A stretch of 64,000 nt of DNA from Mytilus edulis (lineage: Eukaryota), in contig NC_092345.1 in the NCBI RefSeq assembly GCF_963676685.1, positions 22,196,001 to 22,260,000 on the forward strand. The letters run 5' to 3'. The notes beneath the pieces were generated by a model. It had not been told where the DNA came from, did not search any database, and worked only from the letters and a program-made list of their open reading frames with translations. This document shows, in pieces, positions 34,201-34,645 of this stretch. The position numbers were made by a program, and so were the translations under genes. Positions within the stretch are counted from its first letter, which is position 1. Each line of letters opens with the position of its first letter.

Positions 34201-34645
34201 ATGTAGACAAAAATTGCGTTTTGCGTACAAAATTATAAGCCTGGTATCTATGATGTCCACGAAATTCCGACTTATTGCAAAGCCATTTTTATTTTTCTCG
34301 ACAGGAATAAAGAAACAAGACCTTATTCCTATGATGAAAACTGGTTATCGACATCCTCAACCTGAAGATTGTTCCGATTTAATTTATGATATTTTACTTC
34401 GATGTTGGAATGAGAATCCCGACGAAAGGCCAACGTTCGATTTTCTTTACAATTTCTTCGATACAGTAGAAGTAATTAATGATGAAGATATAGGAAGCGA
34501 CGATGTAATGTCAGTTGCCAGTAACGAAGAGGAAAATGCATCAAGCAGACTGAGCGATGTACACGAAGACATACTACCTACACAACGAAGCAAGAGTAAG
34601 AAAAAACATCAACAGAAAGACAAAGAAAAATGCACTATATCATAA
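28247..34645 (+). CDS. B-box1/B-box2/coiled-coil (RING-less TRIM-like) fused to Src-like tyrosine pseudokinase with C-terminal basic tail and CaaX, ~647 aa
   Basis: Exons 28247-29183, 29597-29689, 31353-31636, 33356-33506, 33802(or 33808)-33939, 34305-34645; GT-AG junctions, phases 1,1,0,1,1 consistent. B-boxes CDPC...[17 protein letters not shown] and CDIH...[19 protein letters not shown]; kinase LEIP...[51 protein letters not shown]; ends [17 protein letters not shown]. Confidence 0.85.
29959..30835. mobile_element. PIF/Harbinger-type MITE (877 bp) in kinase-gene intron 2
   Basis: 22-bp TIR GGGCCTGGTTTTCGAAAGTATC; 3-bp TSD CAG at 29956-29958 and 30836-30838; subterminal TCTTATGA/TCATAAGA repeats. 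Confidence 0.85.
31736..33274. mobile_element. Non-autonomous TIR element (~1.54 kb) in kinase-gene intron 3
   Basis: TIR TGTTACAGGGAATTTGT / ACAAATTCCCTGTAACA within TA repeats; arrays of near-palindromic AGTGATTTTGTAAAATCACT subterminal motifs at both ends. Confidence 0.85.
34105..34255 (+). mobile_element. Degenerate retrozyme fragment with mutated hammerhead in the last intron of the kinase gene
   Basis: GCGTTA CTGATGA GTCTTATGTAGAC AAAA... (GAAA->AAAA, stem III lost). Confidence 0.7.

Follow-up and report, generated by a model that had tools for sequence, protein, structure and literature searches.

Human GBP1, a dynamin-family GTPase, is reported from mass spectrometry to be farnesylated; the full-length protein is described as mostly cytosolic until activated, despite its CaaX box CTIS and its basic patch, and its farnesylated form as binding liposomes in the activated state only (PMC2903825). 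Fused to GFP, CTIS directs the reporter to the Golgi, and a polybasic segment followed by CTIS directs it to the Golgi and the plasma membrane, both being abolished by an inhibitor (PMC2998424). CTIS grafted on Cdc42 gave less than 1% farnesylation upon co-expression in E. coli (bioRxiv 2024.11.29.626060), suggesting that context matters. For K-Ras4B, the patch next to the box is reported to need a net charge of at least +4, and weak patches stay on endomembranes (PMC2193662). Prenylated probes are described to move from the plasma membrane to the Golgi and ER as charge drops (PMC8098824). Turnover and swaps of membrane anchors are known in Rheb (PMC5869587), and in TRIM24/27/33-RET cancer fusions the coiled-coil partners are reported to activate RET by dimerisation (PMC7230609). 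By sequence, a pseudokinase is defined as a kinase domain without at least one of the beta3 Lys, the HRD Asp and the DFG Asp (PMC4718504).

Here we describe a locus of the blue mussel Mytilus edulis in a window of 64,000 nucleotides (contig NC_092345.1, positions 22,196,001 to 22,260,000), which encodes a B-box and coiled-coil protein with a kinase-like domain and a C-terminal CaaX box. In an abstract-level search of the open-access literature, we found no description of this B-box pseudokinase family or of any naturally prenylated tyrosine-kinase fold. The locus thus presents a known signal on an architecture that we did not find described in that literature.

Gene structure and transcripts

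The spliced model encodes a protein of 647 amino acids in six exons, with five introns that are all GT..AG, and its translation is identical to P0007, the M. edulis RefSeq protein XP_071154876.1. Exon 6 covers positions 34305-34645. The features are as follows (window positions).

28247-29183 (+): exon 1; two B-box zinc fingers (aa 6-46 and 65-105), TRIM-type coiled coil (about aa 110-260) and Pro-rich linker, without RING or Gly2 (Pfam, profile and dimer model)
29597-29689 (+): exon 2; start of the kinase domain with an altered Gly-rich loop (KSGQFA)
31353-31636 (+): exon 3; N-lobe, with beta3 Lys360 retained and the alphaC Glu changed to Gln375
33356-33506 (+): exon 4; catalytic loop HTDLSAKN (Asp455 and Asn460 retained), with GFG (Gly473) in place of DFG
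33802-33939 (+): exon 5; end of the activation segment without activation-loop Tyr, WTAPE, alphaF
34305-34579 (+): exon 6, first part; end of the kinase C-lobe and acidic spacer (net -12), without a Src-type tail Tyr
34586-34606 (+): basic cluster RSKSKKK (aa 629-635), the same in all five species including M. californianus
34631-34645 (+): CaaX box CTIS (Cys644) and TAA stop; tetrapeptide as in human GBP1
34686-34691 (+): candidate polyadenylation signal, the first hexamer of this type past the stop (AATAAA/ATTAAA scan)

The tail of 20 residues, encoded at 34583-34645 (+), continues the reading frame of the last kinase exon, with a Thr codon at 34580, the Cys codon at 34631-34633 and the TAA at 34643-34645. 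According to the gene model and the RNA contigs, the Cys stands at position -4 of the true C-terminus. Among the RNA-type contigs, those of run X11 carried every one of the five exon joints and those of run X1 carried four, and the contigs continued unspliced across the stop into the 3' UTR. The joint between exons 5 and 6 was present in three of four further runs; two of these covered the tail, with only two synonymous changes. A sequence-only reading of the window had described a basic tail and CaaX box after an acidic spacer on a B-box pseudokinase; the tail and its spacer (net -12) were confirmed, as was the splicing of the gene. No contig of run X18 aligned to the locus. Two raw-read RNA runs (X22 and X23, 2026; about 6% of each) gave essentially no exon cover, suggesting that expression is not general or that the gene is absent from those animals.

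Despite four donor-like sites in exon 6, no joint that removes the CaaX box was found in the RNA contigs, and alternative splicing of this kind was rejected. Records of 315 amino acids that read through the end of exon 1 are probably genomic ORF calls, since the RNA contigs gave no cover of intron 1. Intron 4 (33507-33801) was covered by one X11 contig; its retention would stop the protein before the C-lobe and the CaaX box. Introns 2 and 3 each contain a MITE-like element with terminal inverted and subterminal repeats (29958-30836 and 31730-33280, respectively). The locus is flanked by a rhodopsin-family GPCR exon (10287-10736, -) and an MFS transporter gene (41158-43617, +), and a single ORF of 663 amino acids with Mab-21 nucleotidyltransferase domains (61159-63150, +) is probably a cGAS-like receptor.

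B-box and coiled-coil region

The B-boxes were recognised by Pfam (zf-B_box, E 5e-8), and Pfam scans of the protein gave no RING domain. A profile of exon 1, built from 48 such sequences, matched the structures of TRIM28, TRIM3 and TRIM25 in the PDB (best E 7e-27). The genome contains at least 127 relatives of exon 1 at E<=1e-20, mostly in single ORFs of about 500-660 amino acids; exon 1 therefore looks like the first half of proteins from a large mussel family, joined in this gene to a kinase. The top match in the ESM Atlas was a 64-member cluster of kinase + B-box (72%) recorded without taxa, which is possibly the mussel family itself.

Two copies of residues 1-290 were modelled as an antiparallel dimer with a score of 0.67, compared with 0.00 for the best of three controls; the runs agreed in at least 71% of contacts and the partner pLDDT was at least 77. 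In a microbial reference set, 21 of 30 homodimers but 0 of 23 single chains attained this mark; in a eukaryote set, 17 of 29 pairs did (7 of the 16 from animals) and 0 of 30 single chains. The B-boxes and the coiled coil are predicted from these models to form an antiparallel dimer of the TRIM type, a result that may reflect likeness to the TRIM dimers already solved.

Pseudokinase domain and its paralogues

Residues 318-647 were predicted to adopt a tyrosine-kinase fold (AlphaFold mean pLDDT 85, pTM 0.81; Foldseek). Lys360, Asp455 and Asn460 are retained in all five Mytilus species compared, and Gly473 replaces the DFG Asp in all five. The domain has further lost its alphaC Glu (now Gln375), its HRD Arg (now Thr), two of its three loop glycines and its activation-loop Tyr, and the protein contains no Src Gly2 myristoylation site, SH3, SH2 or regulatory tyrosines. 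By the sequence definition given above, the domain is a pseudokinase. Between M. edulis and M. coruscus, 18 of 265 residues differ in the kinase domain versus 16 of 65 in the linker, indicating that the dead fold is under constraint.

The best single-domain sequence matches were SRK/Fgr/Fyn-like (about 35% identity), and Foldseek ranked ABL, FGFR, RET and Src alike. In trees of 48 rows (62 minus 18 near-duplicates plus four genomic rows), the mussel kinase was placed on the Src side (88/94) and its grouping with ABL was rejected (p-AU 0.019), with ABL as the sole outgroup and long branches as limits of this placement. Its exon breaks lie at the same profile positions as in the paralogous kinases. 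Two more B-box/coiled-coil pseudokinases were found in the genome, at C2:43.3 Mb and C11:62.4 Mb. Neither carries Gly2 or a CaaX box, and the former also lacks the catalytic Asp. All three B-box kinases belong to a seven-row clade of DFG-less mussel kinases (97/94), and a single origin of the three was neither supported nor rejected (p-AU 0.26).

The sequence-only reading had proposed that membrane anchoring was moved from the N-terminus to the C-terminus, and this proposal was not supported. As neither paralogue has Gly2 or CaaX, the capture of the B-box exon needed no replacement anchor. In the present gene, 72 amino acids separate the RPTF motif from the stop, without an intron; the figure is 17-36 for six kinases in which the exon likewise runs to a stop codon, and the tail is therefore probably a local extension. 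From these two points, the anchor was likely not moved, and the CaaX tail is probably a later gain of this paralogue only. When the 10 kb downstream of the last kinase exon was scanned in six paralogues for exons ending in a CaaX box, three short ORF ends turned up, none of which was basic or plausibly spliced.

Several relatives have features of their own. The C2 paralogue has a complete SH3 domain within its activation loop (C2:43295071-43295252, -; loci L020/L003; P0170 in M. coruscus), encoded by a symmetric phase-1 exon that keeps the frame from the catalytic-loop exon into the kinase exon that follows; its splicing is predicted. Further Src-like kinases of the same clade are located at C13:9.20-9.24 Mb, C14:63.03 Mb and C14:64.52 Mb (L002 and L004-L006). 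In each, the last kinase exon seems to be spliced to further sequence; the DFG Asp is changed to Gly in the three in which the motif was seen, and the stretches fetched yielded no B-box, SH3 or SH2. A RING-SH2-pseudokinase with an HRN catalytic loop and GFG, annotated only as SRK-like, is highly conserved in bivalves (L008 at C3:47.9 Mb, P0098 and P0030). A sister relation between it and the B-box pseudokinase, suggested by shared motifs and a quick tree (83), was unsupported in the careful tree.

Charge and predicted accessibility of the C-terminal tail

Upstream of the Cys, the net charge is +6 over both 15 and 20 residues, +3 over 10, and +1 over 8 and 5, and there is no uninterrupted basic run adjoining the CaaX box. 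The 41 residues that precede the tail form the acidic spacer. Ser630 and Ser632 lie inside the basic patch, which by eye falls outside the classical monopartite NLS pattern. The last 38 residues (610-647) have pLDDT values under 50 in the AlphaFold model and are predicted to be disordered, so that the tail would be accessible.

The tail had been called K-Ras-like. The second signal is real, yet it is split and weaker than that of K-Ras4B: the excess of charge over 15-20 residues stands, whereas the charge next to the Cys and the acidic spacer do not fit the term. A rival account is a constitutive plasma-membrane anchor of the K-Ras4B type that took over directly from the Src myristate at the capture of the B-box exon. 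In its favour is the net +6 in 15-20 residues, which exceeds the +4 reported as needed (PMC2193662). Such a replacement would suit a kinase on the Src side against ABL; Src-family rows such as P0023, P0024, P0026 and P0031 start with Met-Gly, and anchor swaps have the precedent of Rheb (PMC5869587). However, the 8 residues before the Cys carry only +1, the spacer carries -12, and both B-box paralogues are without such an anchor. In addition, the kinase falls among further mussel kinases without the DFG Asp (97/94), and therefore its immediate ancestor need not have been myristoylated. We regard this replacement as unlikely.

Conservation among Mytilus species

Conservation of the Cys at -4 in orthologues, which the earlier reading had named as a check, was found in four of five Mytilus species: M. 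edulis, M. galloprovincialis, M. trossulus and M. coruscus all end in CTIS. Their last nine residues are invariant. Between M. edulis and M. coruscus, 1 of 21 tail residues is changed, as are 10 of 36 in the adjoining spacer (Fisher's exact test: p = 0.041, or 0.058 on variable sites, with tail and spacer boundaries chosen by the analyst). At the rate of the spacer, a single Cys would stay unchanged with a probability of about 0.67 and four residues with about 0.2, figures that apply to close relatives only. The M. californianus protein (XP_052092547.1) ends at KSKKKQ, 11 residues short and without the CaaX box, although the basic cluster is kept. The missing Cys goes part of the way towards the refuting outcome named by the earlier reading. 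This record also looks defective in other places: it is without the first 91 residues and shows non-conservative changes in the kinase domain (W342F, I525R and G535R), and it may plausibly be a decaying copy or a faulty model. Its lineage-specific changes number 14, no more than those of M. coruscus (19).

Searches outside Mytilus found no full-length orthologue. P0156 (57% identical to exon 1) and P0246 are probably fragments of more distant orthologues and do not reach the tail, and two candidate last-exon fragments from more distant mytilids were not significant.

The frequency of such tails was counted at the ends of 7155 stop-terminated ORFs in six frames of 288,199 bases of the genome (the window and the fetched loci). 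A farnesyl-type CaaX box was present at 10 ends, a net charge of at least +5 over the 20 residues upstream at 375, and both at one, the query, by thresholds chosen after the tail was seen. This rate, near 1e-4 per ORF end, leaves room for a few chance cases genome-wide. A Cys at -4 was present in 14 of 303 fetched proteins (mostly kinases), nine of the 14 being from this orthogroup.

The tail might be a chance read-through of AT-rich 3' sequence, maybe farnesylated but with little or no function. Its absence from M. californianus and both paralogues, the closeness of the species compared, and a rate that permits a few cases among tens of thousands of genes are consistent with this possibility. 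The tail is nevertheless more conserved than the adjoining spacer, it shows only synonymous changes in two runs, and the M. californianus record would suit a copy in decay or a faulty gene model. We consider a chance tail improbable.

Probable farnesylation and membrane association

In the literature, human GBP1 ends in exactly this CaaX box, CTIS, and prenyltransferase alpha repeats are present in the mussel genome. The earlier statement that C-a-a-S boxes are farnesyltransferase substrates is borne out for this very tetrapeptide in human GBP1 (PMC2903825 and PMC2998424). The mussel protein is likely farnesylated in vivo, and the tail probably has a functional role at membranes. GBP1 is a better comparator than K-Ras.

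The farnesyl group might instead be buried or engaged in binding a protein, the situation in resting hGBP1; alternatively, the basic patch might be a nuclear signal combined with nuclear-envelope binding through the CaaX box. The closest solved B-box/coiled-coil relative is TRIM28, a nuclear protein, and the acidic spacer could mask the patch. The liposome binding of farnesylated hGBP1 in its activated state only (PMC2903825) also agrees with a buried lipid. On the other hand, the tail is predicted to be disordered, the model of residues 318-647 shows no pocket, and the patch misfits the classical NLS pattern. Burial or nuclear targeting has, in our estimate, little likelihood.

Proposed scaffold

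The reading that we favour, with slightly better than even confidence, is that the protein is a doubly lipid-anchored, non-catalytic scaffold, farnesylated at CTIS and dimeric, on anionic membranes (Golgi/endosome and partly plasma membrane). In the proposed history, the B-box/coiled-coil exon of a very large mussel family would have joined a Src-derived kinase of a clade without the DFG Asp, and later, in this paralogue only, the last exon would have gained about 40-50 residues ending in the CaaX box. The farnesylated ends would give the antiparallel dimer two anchors. One farnesyl group with a split basic patch would bind weakly, and stable binding would thus need the avidity of two tails. 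Binding may be switchable, with the acidic spacer masking the patch and two serines lying inside the patch, and the dead kinase domain may bind or modulate a partner at the membrane. The sequence-only reading had arrived at a membrane-tethered oligomeric scaffold: the modelled dimer, the status of CTIS as a substrate in the literature and the predicted disorder of the tail are in keeping with it, whereas the patch is weaker than that of K-Ras4B.

A bolder extension of the scaffold reading, to which we give only a small chance, is that this member of a small mussel family of natural TRIM-tyrosine-pseudokinase fusions is a switchable, membrane-coating immune scaffold with a de novo tail identical to that of GBP1. 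Its dimers, possibly in B-box-linked arrays, would be released onto anionic or pathogen-containing membranes, where dead Src-like domains would trap or modulate active kinases or pathogen effectors.

The GFG motif is also carried by CASK. Weak cation-independent activity of the CASK kind, in a dimerised membrane-bound enzyme akin to TRIM-RET, would be compatible with farnesylation and with the retention of Lys360, Asp455 and Asn460 in all five species, given that CASK is reported to phosphorylate without cations (PMC4718504) and that coiled-coil partners activate RET through dimerisation (PMC7230609), but it is doubtful in the face of the lost DFG Asp, alphaC Glu, HRD Arg, two of three loop glycines and activation-loop Tyr and of the paralogue at C2:43.3 Mb, which is without the catalytic Asp too.

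Comparison with known systems

The signal itself is textbook and the gene is apparently limited to mussels. Cytoplasmic tyrosine-kinase folds are normally anchored N-terminally. If the proposed history is true, a natural one with C-terminal prenylation would show cleanly how a young gene can acquire a lipid anchor de novo, and the paralogues and the M. californianus copy, all without a CaaX box, offer controls that already exist.

With GBP1 the mussel protein shares the identical CaaX tetrapeptide, an upstream basic patch and the build of an oligomerising helical protein (predicted in the mussel). Unlike the mussel protein, GBP1 is a GTPase and has its patch (KMRRRK) directly upstream of the box; the CTIS match is convergent and implies no homology. 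With K-Ras4B it shares a farnesyl-type CaaX box, a Lys-rich upstream region with a net charge above +4 and Ser within the patch. It differs from this GTPase in that the main cluster lies 9-15 residues from the Cys with two acidic residues between, and in the -12 spacer upstream. LKB1 likewise has a kinase domain followed by a CaaX box, which is reported to promote membrane association (PMC3898322), but it is an active Ser/Thr kinase without B-box or coiled coil.

The Src family provides the closest sequence matches and the tree placement against ABL, whereas the mussel kinase has no Gly2, SH3, SH2, activation-loop Tyr or tail Tyr and carries GFG instead of DFG. TRIM/RBCC proteins (TRIM28, TRIM3 and TRIM25) resemble the mussel protein in B-box1, B-box2, the coiled coil and the antiparallel dimer (predicted in the mussel), while the mussel protein has no RING and a putative lipid tag at its end. 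As in the TRIM-RET oncogenes, a tyrosine-kinase fold stands C-terminal to a TRIM dimerisation module; unlike those tumour rearrangements, the mussel fusion is a germline gene, and its kinase, to judge from the residues lost, is catalytically disabled.
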